From: a virus
Strand: one strand, 5' to 3'
DNA length: 60,966 nucleotides
Virus genome (UHGV): UHGV-0202911
The notes under the pieces are model-generated. The model did not search any database. It had not been told where the DNA came from and saw only the letters and a program-made list of their open reading frames with translations. This document shows positions 4,048 through 60,966 of the stretch, piece after piece (position 1 is the first letter of the stretch; each line of letters begins with the position of its first letter). The position numbers and the translations under genes were made by a program.

Positions 4048-4439
4048 ATCCTACAGCACTTGCCAAGAAAGCAGATAAGCAGTTCAGAAAAAATGGACAG
4101 GCCATGACCTTCATTCAAGAGAATGAGAGTGAACAGCCAAATCCAGACACGGGGCAACCCGAAGTCGAGACAATACCAACAGAGTTCTATGGGTTGTGGG
4201 ACACCATCTCTCTACAGGAGATTGGAACGCTCATTCAGGTTGGCGATGCCGTGATTTGGGCTGGAGGCTTGGCAATCCCCAAGCCTGACAATACCGACTG
4301 GATAGATGTTGACGGGGAAGCGTGGAATATCGTTGATGTAGAACCCACAAAACCGGGTTCTATCCCTATCGTGTACAAAATATATGTTCGGAGTGCGGGA
4401 AGTTCAAAGGGATATAAGCGATTAGGGAGAAAAGCCTAA
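4044..4439 (+). CDS. hypothetical head-closure or tail-joining protein
   Basis: ATGA stop-start overlap with the neighbouring gene; morphogenesis-operon context. Confidence 0.4.
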   Translation: MNPTALAKKADKQFRKNGQAMTFIQENESEQPNPDTGQPEVETIPTEFYGLWDTISLQEIGTLIQVGDAVIWAGGLAIPKPDNTDWIDVDGEAWNIVDVEPTKPGSIPIVYKIYVRSAGSSKGYKRLGRKA

Positions 4440-4951
4440 TGCCCGTTGAAGCCTACGAATACCGCATCCAAGAAATCCGTCGCAAGATCAAGGAACTTGA
4501 TTCCGTCATGACGGACGATGTGAACAAGTTTGAGAAGATATTACAGGAGCAAGTTCGGCTCACCATTGAGGGGGAAGCCCTCCTTATTGTCAAGAAAGTA
4601 ATTTCAGAAGTCTTTGTCCGCATCGTCATGCGAACGCCTGTCGATACGGGGCGGGCGAGGGCTTCATGGCAATTCGGCGTCGGAACGGCACCATCGGGGG
4701 TTGCTCCGGACAAAGAGTATCCCGAACTCAAAGATAAAGAAATTTCAGAAACTCAGGTGCGGGCGGCTGTCGCTTCTGCTCTTGAGGAAATATCGGTAGC
4801 TCCTGCATCTGTTTTGTTTATTTCAAACAATCTTGAGTATATCGAAGCGCTAGAGGCGGGATGGTCAAAGAAGCAGGCCCCTGCGGGCATGGTTTCGTTG
4901 ACTCTCAGAGAAATGACCCGGCAACTTGAACAGGAACTTGGAAAAGCATGA
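4439..4951 (+). CDS. HK97 gp10-family tail component
   Basis: motif TPVDTGRARASWQ is characteristic of the HK97 gp10 family. Confidence 0.6.
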   Translation: MPVEAYEYRIQEIRRKIKELDSVMTDDVNKFEKILQEQVRLTIEGEALLIVKKVISEVFVRIVMRTPVDTGRARASWQFGVGTAPSGVAPDKEYPELKDKEISETQVRAAVASALEEISVAPASVLFISNNLEYIEALEAGWSKKQAPAGMVSLTLREMTRQLEQELGKA

Positions 4952-43795: not shown

Positions 43796-43870
43796 TGGCA
43801 GCCGGGGACGGGATCGAACCGCCGATCACAGGGTCAAAGCCTGTTGCCGTAACCGCTTGGCTACCCGGCT
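43796..43870 (-). tRNA. tRNA-Gln (anticodon TTG)
   Basis: cloverleaf folds by hand: acceptor AGCCGGG/CCCGGCT, anticodon loop CTTTGAC, T-loop GGTTCGATCC, 3' CCA. Confidence 0.6.
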
Positions 43871-44091
43871 GTGTTTGTGGCTTCATAGCTGGCCCGGAGA
43901 CGTACTCCGGGCCTTGGCGCGAACTATCTTAATTATATATGATTACTACTACATACGCTGGCCTTTTCAGCGCGTAGCGGGATCATATTGGCAATTAAGA
44001 GAGCTTCGCCTAGCAAAAGGGACATAGGAACCTCTCTTGCGGGCCTTGTCGGGCCAGCTATAAAGCCACAAACGCTCTTCACTTTTCAATC

Positions 44092-44179
44092 TGGCGGACG
44101 GGATGGGATTCGAACCCACGGATGCTTTCACATCGGCGGTTTTCAAGACCGCTGCCTTAGTCCTCTCGGCTACCCGTCC
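44092..44179 (-). tRNA. tRNA-Ser (anticodon TGA) with a long variable arm
   Basis: acceptor GGACGGG/CCCGTCC, anticodon loop CTTGAAA, long variable arm, T-loop GGTTCGAATCC, 3' CCA. Confidence 0.6.
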
Positions 44180-44214
44180 ATGAGCGGTTTGCCCGCTCCT
44201 AACATGCCTAATCA

Positions 44215-44302
44215 GGAGGGAAGGAAAGGGATTTGAACCCTTGGAGGAGCTTATCCCTCTACGGTTTTCACCGCTGCAATCGGCCTCTCTGCCATCCTTC
44301 CC
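44215..44302 (-). tRNA. tRNA-like element; anticodon arm does not fold canonically (possible pseudo-tRNA)
   Basis: acceptor GGGAAGG/CCTTCCC and T-arm AAGGG-TTCAAAT-CCCTT are present; no CCA; no 7-nt anticodon loop found. Confidence 0.3.
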
Positions 44303-56953: not shown

Positions 56954-58411
56954 ATGGCTGACAACACTGAGTATAGCAAAAAACACCCGGATTATTCCGA
57001 GTCATACCAACGCCGGGGGCTGGCCCTTGACCTGTATGAAGGCGGCAGGCGTGTGGAGGAAAACCCCGCGTATCTTATCCGGCACCCGTACGAGACGCAA
57101 AAGCAGTATGATATCCGGTTCCAGCGGGCCACCTACCGCAATTTTGCGGCCCCTATTGTTGACGTGTTCGCCAGCTTCATCAACGAGGGGAGGCCCCAGC
57201 GCGTATTGCCCGCCAAGCTTGAGGATATGCAGGAAAACGTTGACCGTCTCGGCACCAAGGCCAATACCTTCTTTGCCGATGTGACGCGCCTTGCCGCTGC
57301 CGGGGGCATCAGATTTGTGCAGGTTGATGCGGAGCCTCAGGCGGGCGTTACCCAAGCTGAGGCGGAAGAGGCCGGGCGCAGGCAGTGGCCTTATTTCATC
57401 TCCCTTGATCCCACGGACGTATGGGATTGGGAAATCGGCGCGGACGGTTTGGATTGGGTTGTTATCCACGGCGCAGGTATGGAGGGGAATGCCCCATTCA
57501 CCAAGGGTACGCGCTACGAAACCTTGACCGTGTGGACGCGGACGGAATGGACGCGCTACAGGCGGGAAACGGATTCCACGGCAAAGGCAGCGACCAGCCT
57601 CGGGTGGAAAGAATACGACAAAGGGATAAACCCTTCCGGGGTGGTCCCCGTAGTGCCGTTTACGTTTGAAGATACGGCGGGTTCCATCATGTCCGGCGTC
57701 CCGGCAACGGATGACGTTCTTTCGCTTGTTCTTCGCATTTACAGGCGCGATTCCGAACTGGATAAGATGCTGTTCGACCGGGCCGTCCCTCTGCTCAACG
57801 TCAATGGCCTAAGCAAAGAGGACTGGGCAGATTTTGTCGTGGGAAGCTCTAACGCCCTCATGAGCACGGACCCAGGCGGCATCACCGCGCAGTATGTGGA
57901 ATCCACGGGAACCTCCTTTTCGGCGCAGACTGAATTTTTGACCCGTGACGAGAACTCGGTGCGTGAAATCGCGCTCCGCATGATCCGCCCGCAGTCCGGG
58001 GTAGGGGAGTCCGCCGAATCCAAACAGATTGACCGTCAACAGCTTGATACACAGCTTGCGAACTTTGCCCGCAGGTGTGCCAATGCTGAGGCGCAGTGCT
58101 GGAAAATCGCGGCCCGATGGATGCGACTGGACGATCGCGACATTTCCACGCCCTATACTGAGAATTACGATGTAGAGGCCGCAGGGGATGCAATTGTGTC
58201 TGCGCTGGTATCCCTGAACTCGCAAGCTATCATCTCCAAGCAAACCATCAGGGACACATCCGCAGTCAAGAAGATGATGCCCGAGGGATGGAAACCAGAA
58301 GAGGAAGAGACGCGGTTGCAGCAAGAGCTTGGAAGCACGAGGGGAGCTTCTGGAACTTTGCGTTTGCCGAATATTCTTGGAGGGACGGGAACGCAAGGCA
58401 TGAATATTTAA
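56954..58411 (+). CDS. portal protein
   Basis: 486 aa between terL and MuF. Confidence 0.65.
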   Translation: MADNTEYSKKHPDYSESYQRRGLALDLYEGGRRVEENPAYLIRHPYETQKQYDIRFQRATYRNFAAPIVDVFASFINEGRPQRVLPAKLEDMQENVDRLGTKANTFFADVTRLAAAGGIRFVQVDAEPQAGVTQAEAEEAGRRQWPYFISLDPTDVWDWEIGADGLDWVVIHGAGMEGNAPFTKGTRYETLTVWTRTEWTRYRRETDSTAKAATSLGWKEYDKGINPSGVVPVVPFTFEDTAGSIMSGVPATDDVLSLVLRIYRRDSELDKMLFDRAVPLLNVNGLSKEDWADFVVGSSNALMSTDPGGITAQYVESTGTSFSAQTEFLTRDENSVREIALRMIRPQSGVGESAESKQIDRQQLDTQLANFARRCANAEAQCWKIAARWMRLDDRDISTPYTENYDVEAAGDAIVSALVSLNSQAIISKQTIRDTSAVKKMMPEGWKPEEEETRLQQELGSTRGASGTLRLPNILGGTGTQGMNI

Positions 58412-58497
58412 AGATAAAGGTACGGTTCGCGCCGTGCCTTTTTACTTCCAATGGGTTGTGATGTTTGGTAGAATGGCGGGTATAGGGAGGATAAAAA

Positions 58498-58805
58498 TGA
58501 AAGAGCTTACCAAAGTTGAACGTGAACCTTACCGTAAGGCTATTGAAGACGCCGTGATGAATCTTTGTGCCGCATGTAGTAATGCTCTTGCACAAGGCTT
58601 AGATGTAGACATTAATATTCAACATTTAACTGATTTCGATCCGCTGAAAGGGCCTATCCGTGGTATCACTTCAAACAGAATTATAACCGCAAACCATAAA
58701 ATGCCCATTGAAGAAATAGTAAGCCCTTACTCTCCACCGTCAGTAAAAATAGATATTGAAGGGTGTAATAGAGATGATATTGATCTTCGAGAGGCTGCAA
58801 AATAA
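58498..58805 (+). CDS. hypothetical small protein (AT-rich insert between portal and MuF)
   Basis: GGGAGG RBS. Confidence 0.4.
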
Positions 58806-58808
58806 AGA

Positions 58809-60887
58809 ATGAATACCCAAGACCTCGCTGAACTCTATCTTCTCTCCCGTTCCCTTTGGTGGCAGCATGAACTCGGCTTGCTTTCCGATCAGGCCGTGTC
58901 GGAACTCATCAAAGTGCTGCGTTCGGCACGTGCCGGAATCGTGGCGCAAATCGAAGCCGAAGCACAAGGTCTGGCCTCCATTTCGGAGTGGACGAGGGAA
59001 AGGAATGACCAGATTTCCGCATGGATTGACGATGTTCTTGCGGGCACATCGGCAAGCGTCACCAGCTACATTTCCGAAGCGTCCGTAGGCGTGGCCCTTG
59101 CGTCCGTGGCGACGTACAACAGCATCCTGTCTTTTGACGGGAAAGCAAAGGCGGTAAAGCTGGTTGAAGGGCTCACACGGGAACAGGTGAAGCAATTCTT
59201 CCAAGACCAGCCCCTAGGCGGGAAATTACTTTCCGACTGGGTGGGCAATGCCTTCTCGACCGGGGCGCGGGATTCCATTCTGGACGCCATCCGCGAGGGC
59301 GTGGTCATGGGTGAGGGATACCGCAAGCTCGTCAAACGCGTCATGACGGCGGCTGATGCGGGATTCTCCATTACTCAACGCGAGGCCACAACCTTAGTCC
59401 GAACGTACGTTCAGAGTGCAAATACGGGCGCACAAGAAGCGGTTTACGAGCAGAATGAGGGAATAATCAAGGGATACAAGCGCGTTGAGACGCTCGATAA
59501 CCGTACATGCCGAATCTGTGCGTTGGCAGATGGAGCCGTGTATGGGAAAAACGAGAAACGTCCAGAATTACCTGCTCACCCCAACTGTGTCATAGGTGAA
59601 ACGTCCATCTTTGCCCCTGACTATATCGCTGCATTTGTCACCTCCTATAGCGGCCCGGTATTCGAGATTACTTTTTCCAACGGCACACGGGTCACCACTA
59701 CCGGAAATCACATGTTCTTGACAGACAAGGGCTTCACCCCCGCGAAGTCTTTGAACAAGGGAGAAAATGTATTCTGCGGCTCCGGAAAAGTCGTCTCTGG
59801 TGGAGTTTTTCCCCCAGATAATAATGGGCAACCAACCAGAATTGATAAGATAGTCGATGCGTTTTCTAAATCTGAGGGAGTGAGTTCCGTAAGAGTGCCA
59901 ACATCCCCCGAATATCTCCACGGCGATGGGGAATTCTGTCAAGGCTATATCGATGTTATAGCGCCCGATTGCCTTTTGAGGGGTGATCACGAGACCTTTT
60001 TCAATGAGTTTTTGGGCGAGAATTTTTTCTCCAAAGCTCTTGATAAGACCTTTTCTTTCGATACCAAGCGCTATTTTCCTCCTATGTTCTTCGGATTGTG
60101 GCTTGCCTCTAACTGCCATATGAGCGGCAGAAGTATTCTTGATGTTTTCCTGTCTGGTTCTACCGGATGCCATCATCCTGTTGGCCTCAGTATTAGTCCT
60201 TCTGGAAACGCCTGCTTCAATGAGAATAGATTTAATGACGATTCTCTCGGTATTATACCTTCTTGCAAGTTCCCTTTCAGAAGTTCCATTAACATACGAA
60301 AAAATAAGTTCTTCTCTGGGGATTCTTTCTCCAATTTTTCCGGTGGGCAATCCCATTTCCTTGATACGCCTAATAATAGTATTGGTAGAAACGCCGAATT
60401 CCTTAGCTATTTGAGAAAAGCGTTCATAAGCAAAATACCGTTTACACAAGTCGTCGGTATCAATATCCGTTCTTTTTTTGGGCATATGTATGACCTCCAA
60501 ACAATAAGTTCATTATATCAAGTGAACGGAATAGTTACAAGCAATTGCCGAGGCGTATATGTACCGATCTTGAAAACATTTCGAGAGATTGGGTTGAATA
60601 TAGACGAACTTGAGGAAGTTGCGAGGCCGTGGACTATCCGAGAGCAGGGGCCGATAGGTACGGGCGGTCGAAAAATCCTGAACTTCGGCACCACGAAAGA
60701 GAATTTCGGCGGCTGGTGGGAATCCCTCTCGGCAGAAGACAAGCTGAAAACCAGTGTCGGACCAGTGCGTGGAAGGTTGCTTCAAGAGGGACTAGTGCGA
60801 TGGGAAGACCTGAGCGATAAGCGCACAGGGTTGCCGTACACGCTGGAACAGTTGGGGTTTGATGAACAGGGAAATCCGTTGCGCTAG
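58809..60887 (+). CDS. head morphogenesis protein (MuF/SPP1 gp7 family) interrupted by an in-frame intein
   Basis: extein ...RTCRICALADGAVYGKNEKRPELPAHPN|C..intein..N|CRGVYVP reconstitutes the MuF HPNC(R) motif. Confidence 0.7.
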   Translation: MNTQDLAELYLLSRSLWWQHELGLLSDQAVSELIKVLRSARAGIVAQIEAEAQGLASISEWTRERNDQISAWIDDVLAGTSASVTSYISEASVGVALASVATYNSILSFDGKAKAVKLVEGLTREQVKQFFQDQPLGGKLLSDWVGNAFSTGARDSILDAIREGVVMGEGYRKLVKRVMTAADAGFSITQREATTLVRTYVQSANTGAQEAVYEQNEGIIKGYKRVETLDNRTCRICALADGAVYGKNEKRPELPAHPNCVIGETSIFAPDYIAAFVTSYSGPVFEITFSNGTRVTTTGNHMFLTDKGFTPAKSLNKGENVFCGSGKVVSGGVFPPDNNGQPTRIDKIVDAFSKSEGVSSVRVPTSPEYLHGDGEFCQGYIDVIAPDCLLRGDHETFFNEFLGENFFSKALDKTFSFDTKRYFPPMFFGLWLASNCHMSGRSILDVFLSGSTGCHHPVGLSISPSGNACFNENRFNDDSLGIIPSCKFPFRSSINIRKNKFFSGDSFSNFSGGQSHFLDTPNNSIGRNAEFLSYLRKAFISKIPFTQVVGINIRSFFGHMYDLQTISSLYQVNGIVTSNCRGVYVPILKTFREIGLNIDELEEVARPWTIREQGPIGTGGRKILNFGTTKENFGGWWESLSAEDKLKTSVGPVRGRLLQEGLVRWEDLSDKRTGLPYTLEQLGFDEQGNPLR
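59568..60485 (-). CDS. homing-endonuclease-like protein (HTH and NUMOD-like motifs plus a DUF559/Vsr-like PD-(D/E)xK nuclease) encoded antisense inside the intein
   Basis: GGAGGT RBS 5 nt before the ATG; HTHs QIAKEFGVSTNTIIRRI and ERELARRYNTERIVIKS; GKPQSEEHRRKI (NUMOD3-like); NIDIALTEFPIAVEIFGGCWH (DUF559-like). Confidence 0.6.
   Translation of the reverse strand: MPKKRTDIDTDDLCKRYFAYERFSQIAKEFGVSTNTIIRRIKEMGLPTGKIGERIPREELIFSYVNGTSERELARRYNTERIVIKSILIEAGVSRRTNTEANRMMASGRTRQENIKNTSAAHMAVRGKPQSEEHRRKIALGIERKGLIKSFGEKILAQKLIEKGLVITPQKAIGRYNIDIALTEFPIAVEIFGGCWHSYGTHSLRFRKRIDYLINSGWLPIIIWGKNSTRDDFSGAAEYIFSLVQRLRGGEALVCQEHVISGSGDPCAVGKSNLEYRAAIGGDKCSDIVRGKDGRFTYDTVGVSR
59586..60545 (+). mobile_element. 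intein, 320 aa (Hint blocks A, B, F and G present; no in-frame endonuclease domain recognisable)
   Basis: block A CVIGETSI; block B TTGNHMF; block F HMYDLQTI...; block G NGIVTSN followed by +1 Cys; length is a multiple of 3. Confidence 0.65.
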
Positions 60888-60966
60888 TGGCTCTTGACCT
60901 TCCCAACAGGAAAATTTATCTTCTAGAGAAGAAGGGCGGCAAGTGCGCTAACACTCACCGCCCCGT

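Follow-up and report, generated by a model that had tools for sequence, protein, structure and literature searches.

A putative mobile element composed of an intein and an antisense Vsr-like homing endonuclease gene in the MuF-like gene of an uncultured siphovirus-like phage

In the phage genome UHGV-0202911, the MuF (SPP1 gp7-like) head-morphogenesis gene contains an intein on the + strand, and the opposite strand of the same DNA encodes a Vsr-like homing endonuclease. The window analysed here is the whole stretch of 60,966 nt, which belongs to an uncultured siphovirus-like phage. Intein and antisense gene together most likely form a mobile, self-contained element of about 1 kb, a reading to which we assign a probability of roughly 0.85. 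An initial annotation, made from the sequence alone, had already outlined the two parts: a canonical intein of 960 nt, in frame and placed before the Cys of the MuF HPNC motif (CVIGETSI, TTGNHMF, MYDLQT...NGIVTSN, +1 Cys), no endonuclease domain in the + frame between the splicing lobes, and a 305-aa minus-strand open reading frame (ORF) with helix-turn-helix (HTH) motifs and a DUF559/Vsr-like core, whose GGAGGT ribosome-binding site and start codon lie in intein block F and whose stop lies 16 nt before the intein. This outline agrees with the sequence and with the profile searches and models described below. The NUMOD3-like motif that it also named is unsupported, as neither NUMOD nor NUMOD3 gave a profile match in the nuclease.

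According to the proposed mechanism, the intein would be translated within MuF, excise itself and rejoin HPN to CRG, thereby restoring the MuF motif; conserved catalytic residues and the existence of cultured carriers point to splicing. The minus-strand gene would express a nuclease with a tandem HTH region and a Vsr-like, EDxHD-type catalytic domain from signals of its own (a promoter-like site, a Shine-Dalgarno sequence and a start codon). In a co-infected cell or a lysogen, this nuclease would cut an intein-less MuF gene near the sequence coding for the HPN/CRG junction (a slash marks a splice junction throughout), as the near-identical intein in a sister phage and the empty alleles suggest, and recombinational repair would then copy intein and nuclease gene together, that is, the element would home. 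Since synthesis of MuF needs an open + frame, the nuclease gene would have been purged of the codons TTA, CTA and TCA, and between the lobes the + frame would be an unstructured linker free of amino-acid constraint.

The intein and the antisense nuclease gene

The principal features are as follows.

58809 to 60887, + strand: MuF/gp7-like head-morphogenesis precursor ORF, 692 aa, uninterrupted, stop codon included in the coordinates
58809 to 59585, + strand: N-extein, ending in PELPAHPN, aligned to the intein-less alleles P0051, P0055 and P0065
59586 to 60545, + strand: class-1 intein from Cys1 to the terminal Asn, 960 nt, 320 aa, inserted at HPN/CRG of MuF
59697 to 59723, + strand: intein block B, TTGNHMFLT, with T39 and H42 of the TxxH motif; its antisense reading is the conserved QEHVI of the nuclease (alignment A1)
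59802 to 60410, + strand: stop-free "filler" frame that links the two splicing lobes and lies opposite the body of the nuclease gene
60432 to 60545, + strand: intein C-lobe with block F (GHMYDLQT, 60480-60503) and block G (NGIVTSN, 60525-60545), aligned to solved inteins
60546 to 60887, + strand: C-extein, beginning at the +1 Cys (CRGVYVP...), with C580, R581 and G582 invariant, intein-less alleles included
59568 to 60485, - strand: antisense homing-endonuclease gene, 305 aa plus TAA, with ATG at 60485-60483 and TAA at 59570-59568
60180 to 60449, - strand: N-terminal tandem HTH region (nuclease aa 13-102), from profile and weak Pfam HTH matches
59718 to 60020, - strand: Vsr-like nuclease domain (aa 156-256); the codons of its final ~20 residues lie opposite the intein N-lobe

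A blastn search with the DNA of the MuF gene found no similarity among GenBank phages, so that searches had to be made at the protein level. Pfam places Phage_Mu_F at precursor aa 156-260. When the intein is removed in silico, the match rises to 37.6 bits, crosses the junction and takes in profile positions 2-110 of 112. The insert has a guanine-plus-cytosine (GC) content of 0.38-0.47 vs 0.55-0.60 in the flanks. Rfam reported no RNA family for positions 58300-60966 at E values up to 1; thus no known RNA family, such as a group I or group II intron, fits the insert.

The intein begins with CVIGETSI, its first residue being the N-terminal nucleophile of block A (Cys at 59586-59588), which is invariant in 28 mini-inteins. 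Block B occupies intein aa 38-46; in the mini-intein alignment (A4) its H42 does not vary and its T39 is conserved to at least 90%. At the other end the intein closes with GHMYDLQTISSLYQVNGIVTSN, which includes MYDLQT...NGIVTSN and is followed directly by the +1 Cys; blocks F and G read ...YDLQT...NGIVTSN/C, the terminal Asn and the following Cys being as expected of block G. Across 19 homologous precursors, no variation is seen at C260, T298, N300, H301, Y561, N579 and C580, and D562 and L563 reach a conservation of at least 90%. Pfam Intein_splicing matches the single sequence over precursor aa 273-566 with E = 7e-7. Since the intein part of the precursor model was too poor for a fold search, a sequence profile was compared with the PDB instead. 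Built from 28 N-lobe plus C-lobe sequences of mini-inteins, it retrieved 43 solved Hint/intein chains and nothing else, with the MJ0781 intein first (2jmz, E = 4e-9), followed by the Mtu RecA, Pho RadA, NrdJ-1 and DnaB inteins. The + frame between the lobes matches no Pfam family and is modelled at a pLDDT confidence score of 22-34. These sequence comparisons support the assignment of the + strand element to canonical class-1 inteins, located at the HPN/C site of MuF and apparently without an in-frame endonuclease.

On the minus strand, the ATG of the nuclease gene is antisense to the block F His codon CAT, and its TAA lies 16 nt upstream of the intein. Homologs of the nuclease (n = 36) extend down to 28% identity. 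A family profile matches, with its N-terminal part, the tandem HTH structure 2lvs (E = 8e-6) as well as resolvase HTH domains, and, with its C-terminal part, the DUF559-type nuclease 3hrl (E = 1e-4) and I-Bth0305I (3r3p, E = 0.04). Pfam MTES_1575 matches with E = 5e-6, under its cut-off. The structural model reaches a mean pLDDT of 85.6, and its best PDB matches in Foldseek are Vsr (1cw0, 1vsr) and I-Bth0305I (3r3p), with probability 1.00 and template modelling (TM) scores of 0.55-0.72. Four residues, E153, D179, E190 and R209, do not vary within the family, and 26 of 28 members have H197; the window ORF is intact and retains the family-invariant residues. Profiles and model thus support a predicted protein with tandem HTH motifs and a Vsr-like nuclease domain.

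For the tail of the nuclease (aa 257-305, 59568-59717, minus strand), encoded opposite the intein N-lobe, the model predicts beta strands at pLDDT 64-88; the length of this tail differs among relatives. These strands could be a real fold, or they could reflect covariation imported into the model from the intein on the opposite strand.

The frames of nuclease and intein are exactly codon-aligned, position 1 of one being position 3 of the other. What keeps the + frame open is the absence of TTA, CTA and TCA from the 19 Leu and 21 Ser codons of the nuclease gene; the chance of such an absence is P ~0.005 given the codon usage of the window and ~1e-5 given the base composition of the ORF itself.

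Expression signals and constraint on the two strands

Two candidate expression signals lie within the intein blocks.

60493 to 60498, - strand: Shine-Dalgarno sequence GGAGGT, 7 nt upstream of the ATG and complementary to GAC CTC, which codes for Asp-Leu in block F
60512 to 60540, - strand: sigma-70-like putative promoter, TTGTAA - 17 nt - TGaTATAAT, antisense to block G codons

In the window, the promoter scan found 10 of 12 consensus matches plus an extended -10. Relatives of the subfamily whose inteins end in SSN show, in the antisense reading, TTGACA-17-TATAAT at the same place, then GGAGG, then ATG. Of 40 distinct full-length relatives, 39 have the start codon, with GGAG[GA]T ahead of it, exactly 20 codons before the terminal intein Asn; it lies opposite the block F His, and GGAG[GA]T opposite Asp-Leu. 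Synonymous codon choice, tallied in the 29 members of the SSN subfamily, is strongly biased at the residues concerned.

His (block F): CAT in 21/21, antisense ATG start
Leu (YDL): CTC in 24/27, antisense GGAG of the Shine-Dalgarno sequence
Gln: CAA in 21/21, antisense TTG upstream of the Shine-Dalgarno sequence
Leu (SLY): TTA in 16/21, antisense TATAAT
Ser (SLY): TCA in 19/19, antisense TATAAT
Ser(-2): TCA in 25/29, antisense TTGACA
Ser(-1): AGY in 28/29, antisense TTGACA

The most conserved residues of the intein double as translation signals and, presumably, as transcription signals of the nuclease. In the relatives, the nuclease stop codon is always found in a range that extends from intein codon 30 to a point 10 codons upstream of the intein. 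From these start and stop positions it follows that the entire nuclease gene travels inside the intein or at most 30 nt from it.

The initial annotation had taken about 900 nt to be protein-coding on both strands. Differences per site were tallied in 13 pairs with nucleotide identities of 70-85%, separately for nuclease codon positions 1, 2 and 3.

Middle of the insert (nuclease aa 19-234): 0.275, 0.190 and 0.499
Opposite the intein N-lobe: 0.224, 0.019 and 0.155

In the middle, the fastest site is the third position of the nuclease, which is position 1 of the + frame; opposite the N-lobe, it is the wobble position of the intein that evolves fastest. Amino-acid identities, taken from these same pairs, follow the same division, with 0.67 in the nuclease frame vs 0.42 in the + frame for the middle, and 0.78 in the nuclease frame vs 0.84-0.88 in the intein frame for the N-lobe. 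These comparisons show the nuclease frame to be the frame apparently under selection in the middle of the insert, while the N-lobe is, by the same measures, probably constrained at the amino-acid level on both strands, a true co-encoding with the end of the nuclease domain. A two-strand constraint is more weakly indicated for the last ~20 intein codons. Position pattern and identities together imply a single real gene opposite a stop-free linker for most of the 900 nt: the claim of double coding holds for the N-lobe, less firmly for the last ~20 codons, and fails for the middle of about 650 nt, where the + frame appears to be merely stop-free.

In all relatives the nuclease ORF covers at least intein codons 31-66. 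The idea that it always spans the whole N-lobe was rejected in view of the range of stop positions given above. Matches in tblastn run past the true stop of the nuclease because the antisense of the conserved N-lobe remains similar.

The same data bear on the possibility that the minus ORF is a by-product of a real + frame domain in the middle of the insert, for which the conservation of some + frame motifs (HGDG, IDIIAP) might speak. Read on the opposite strand, these motifs turn out to be the nuclease core (AVE, YNIDIA). The poorly modelled + frame without a Pfam match, its first codon position being the fastest, and the confident Vsr-fold model obtained from the minus frame leave this explanation hardly any credibility.

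Filled, empty and decaying alleles

Spliced pairwise alignments were used to compare the window with its sister phage L136 and with intein-less alleles. The precursor of L136 is 97% identical to that of the window. The intein is identical at 957 of 960 positions (99.7%), compared with 699 of 777 in the N-extein and 315 of 342 in the C-extein. The last upstream difference lies at 59564 and the first downstream one at 60551, so that, apart from three substitutions within the intein, the tract 59565-60550 is identical; it extends from 21 nt upstream to 5 nt downstream of the intein, within exteins that are 90-92% identical overall. The upstream part is a feature in its own right.

59565 to 59585, no strand assigned: upstream flank that moves with the element, holds the nuclease stop codon and would form half of the presumed homing site

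Within this flank, the intein-less allele differs at 6 synonymous sites. Empty alleles occur in close relatives. P0051, P0055 and P0065 are intein-less, with the motif HP[NRE]CRG uninterrupted, and P0051, from syntenic phages, shows 92% identity over the alignment and 95% in the best local segment. The syntenic phages L133-L135 carry an intein-less allele with HPNCRG intact and exteins 92-95% identical; the empty junction of L133 is flanked by GAACTCCCCGCACATCCAAAT on the left and TGCCGAGGAATATGG on the right. A near-identical intein in diverged exteins, next to empty alleles, looks like the pattern expected of recent homing, as judged from these alignments.

In some relatives the nuclease frame is interrupted by nonsense codons while the + frame remains open, at aa ~172 in L010/L011 and at aa ~28-37 in L036. 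This fits a decay phase of the homing cycle, in which endonuclease genes would degenerate within inteins that are still contiguous. The same decay could be taken to mean that the window itself holds a relic, in which the intein splices, the antisense nuclease is inactive or unexpressed, inheritance is vertical and the minus ORF is decaying; vertical-looking patterns have been described for some clusters of VSR inteins (bioRxiv 10.1101/2025.01.02.630785). Against this stand the intact window ORF with its family-invariant residues, the intein that is 99.7% identical between phages whose exteins differ by 8-10%, the coexistence of intein-less alleles, and a wobble-position pattern that indicates purifying selection on the nuclease frame. 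We consider a relic improbable, even if it is the most plausible of the alternatives.

Distribution of the arrangement and relation to known inteins

The set of related loci comprised 133 loci, 116 of them distinct. In all 133, the + frame that is codon-aligned and antisense to the nuclease is open across the entire nuclease match. In the N-exteins of these loci, codons that would give an antisense stop occur at 0.018 per codon, from which ~0.4% of 300-codon stretches would be open by chance; the GC content is below 0.50 in 29 of the 133. Nearly all share the context HP[NR]/C..GET ... [SH]N/CRC. Three metagenomic relatives, with nuclease identities of 75%, 49% and 41%, all have an open antisense frame and a homologous intein.

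A tblastn search of GenBank phages with the nuclease matched 126 records, including 62 of Salmonella, 15 of Pseudomonas, 14 of Gordonia, 8 of Klebsiella and 6 of Escherichia phages. The Salmonella matches are partial (nuclease aa ~58-215), and one of the 62, BPS11Q3, was inspected. Altogether five records were inspected, namely Gordonia phage Vivi2 (L005), Idiomarinaceae phage 1N2-2 (L006), Aaphi23 (L007), Jerseyvirus BPS11Q3 (L137) and P. aeruginosa phage CF74b (L138). In all five the nuclease match is antisense inside an annotated MuF, head-morphogenesis or hypothetical gene, the insertion site reads xN/C ... N/C[RK]x, and the intact antisense nuclease ORF is unannotated. All five phages are cultured, viable carriers of the same arrangement. 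A pattern scan gave more than 559 contigs in IMG/VR (80 of them were retained) and a further 45 from bacterial genomes and metagenome-assembled genomes (MAGs) of many phyla. No free-standing member of the clade of the window nuclease was seen among the 133 loci found, all of which lie in a MuF intein.

Two loci show peculiarities. In L130, a contig of a Frankiales MAG, the intein ends in ...VHN/C, and an intact HPRCRC follows ~45 residues downstream; the insertion site may be another one here, or a second MuF-like motif may be present in the protein. On contig L004, a separate DUF559 (Vsr-like) gene occupies 4220-4588, at a distance of ~1.4 kb from the intein and its nuclease gene.

The distribution makes it quite unlikely that intein and nuclease are two independent selfish elements in loose association. 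Vsr-like nucleases are known as free-standing genes and from group I introns (Dassa 2009, PMC2677866; Taylor 2011, PMC3239194), and invasion of the intein by a free-standing gene is the likely origin of the arrangement. However, every one of the 133 relatives found sits in this intein and at this position of MuF, promoter, ribosome-binding site, start and stop are all inside the intein or within 30 nt of it, and the tract shared by the window and L136 coincides almost exactly with intein plus nuclease gene.

Very improbable, too, is a MuF pseudogene or fractured gene split by a free-standing nuclease, with a fortuitous long + frame. Fractured genes with a Vsr-like nuclease between split-intein halves exist, and gene callers split the host gene around the nuclease on several metagenomic contigs. 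Such a pseudogene would be expected to show stops in the + frame of related sequences. None was found across the nuclease match in the 133 loci, although by chance a locus would be open with a probability of only ~0.4% and 29 of the loci have a GC content below 0.50; moreover, the window ORF has no stop, there is no start codon or ribosome-binding site for a C-terminal half, and the catalytic residues of the intein are invariant.

Several points weigh against the reading of a splicing, self-expressed and mobile element. The penultimate residue of the intein is Ser and not His, the Pfam Intein_splicing match scores 29.6 bits, under the gathering cut-off of 35.8 bits, and the AlphaFold model of the whole precursor is of low confidence in its intein part (pLDDT 27-76). 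The promoter was called by its match to a consensus, in a scan that yields 3 sites vs 1.9 expected in shuffled sequences. The substitution pattern rests on pooled pairs that are not phylogenetically independent, and for the single pair of the window and L001 a shift in codon-position bias is not significant (Fisher's test, p = 0.24). Finally, not every phage strictly needs its SPP1-type gp7 protein, which makes the viable cultured carriers no more than indirect evidence for splicing.

With regard to the family as a whole, we are inclined, with some reserve, to regard the antisense arrangement not as a rarity of a few actinobacteriophages but as the stable, ancient state of a very large family of inteins at the MuF site (NC/RC), spread over phages and prophages of many phyla, including Salmonella Jerseyviruses and phages of Pseudomonas, Klebsiella, Vibrio and Aggregatibacter. 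Its expression cassette would be fixed in blocks F and G by synonymous codons and the Vsr end co-encoded with the N-lobe, block B included, and no free-standing member of the clade has been seen. To our knowledge, within the literature searched, these points are apparently unpublished.

Two further features of the window lie outside the element. Between the portal and MuF genes lies an ORF of 123 aa (58434-58805, + strand) with a GC content of 0.375-0.43 vs 0.55-0.60 in its flanks and no Pfam family. Sister phages differ in this slot, L133 having a P22_AR_N antirepressor on the other strand and L136 four small ORFs; it looks like a variable insertion point for morons. According to ARAGORN, the minus strand has a tRNA cluster at 43796-44302, made up of tRNA-Gln(ttg), tRNA-Ser(tga) and a tRNA-like gene of 88 nt, for which the program gives an undetermined anticodon of two bases.

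The initial annotation had regarded the element as a new type of composite element, a view that does not survive comparison with the literature. Gosselin, Arsenault and Gogarten (bioRxiv 10.1101/2025.01.02.630785, version 2025-10-20) reported that full inteins of actinobacteriophages can contain genes for LAGLIDADG or VSR-like endonucleases in antisense orientation, and their Supplemental Table 1 lists Vivi2 gp14, Angelicage gp15, Affeca gp15, Fosterous gp12 and Malisha gp5 as "minor capsid, MuF-like ... VSR -1 ORF". Antisense LAGLIDADG inteins are earlier still, being credited to Gorbalenya 1998 and Gogarten 2002, as these works are cited in that preprint. Vivi2, Fosterous, Affeca, Angelicage and Malisha are also the top GenBank tblastn matches of the window nuclease, at 30-33% identity. 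The window element shares with their inteins the host gene family, the site (xxN/CRC), the class-1 intein, the -1 antisense frame and a nuclease with HTH plus Vsr-like domains. Unlike those actinobacteriophages, the window phage is uncultured, and its TerL is closest (45% identity) to siphoviruses of Xanthomonas and Stenotrophomonas, not to actinobacteriophage. The window element is real, and it is a non-actinobacteriophage example of an already described intein type. The preprint surveys PhagesDB only, its main text makes no mention of promoters, ribosome-binding sites or start codons, and it does not cover the signals in blocks F and G, codon-position evidence or the distribution beyond PhagesDB.

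Other known systems are related more distantly. The Synechocystis DnaX intein (Gorbalenya 1998 and Gogarten 2002, as cited in the preprint) likewise has an endonuclease ORF opposite a contiguous intein whose own frame is open, but there the endonuclease is of the LAGLIDADG type and not Vsr-like, the host gene is another one and there is no homology. The fractured genes of Dassa et al. 2009 (PMC2677866), in which genes of Vsr-like nucleases lie between split-intein halves, resemble the window in being phage genes with an intein and a separately translated Vsr-like nuclease, and in their likely origin by invasion of a free-standing gene. In contrast to these, with their two ORFs and trans-splicing, the window nuclease is antisense, and host ORF and intein are contiguous in a single frame of 692 aa, as they are in all 133 loci by their open + frame. 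I-Bth0305I (Taylor et al. 2011, PMC3239194; PDB 3r3p), the prototype of the EDxHD family of homing endonucleases, likewise combines an N-terminal double HTH/NUMOD-type region with a C-terminal Vsr fold (Foldseek TM 0.70-0.72). It belongs to a group I intron of recA, whereas the window nuclease lies in an intein, and sequence similarity is marginal; E153, D179, E190 and H197 of the window family are candidate residues of a composite EDxHD motif, for which D196, N208, H213 and D222 are the residues of comparison in I-Bth0305I.

What is added here is the breadth of the family, evidence at codon level of selection on either strand, the cassette in blocks F and G, and matched filled and empty alleles. 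The element is compact, as ~1 kb holds a protein-splicing domain on one strand and a complete endonuclease gene with its own expression signals on the other. It is relevant to the "splicing first" model of how inteins evolve, according to which mini-inteins are invaded by free-standing endonuclease genes, and indicates that true two-strand coding can persist over deep divergence. Annotation pipelines miss such nuclease genes, and such inteins can be mistaken for decaying or mini-inteins. With the intein-containing L136 and the empty L133-L135, all of them close relatives, an experimental system is at hand, in which a change of the block F His codon from CAT to CAC would remove the start codon of the nuclease and leave the intein protein unchanged.

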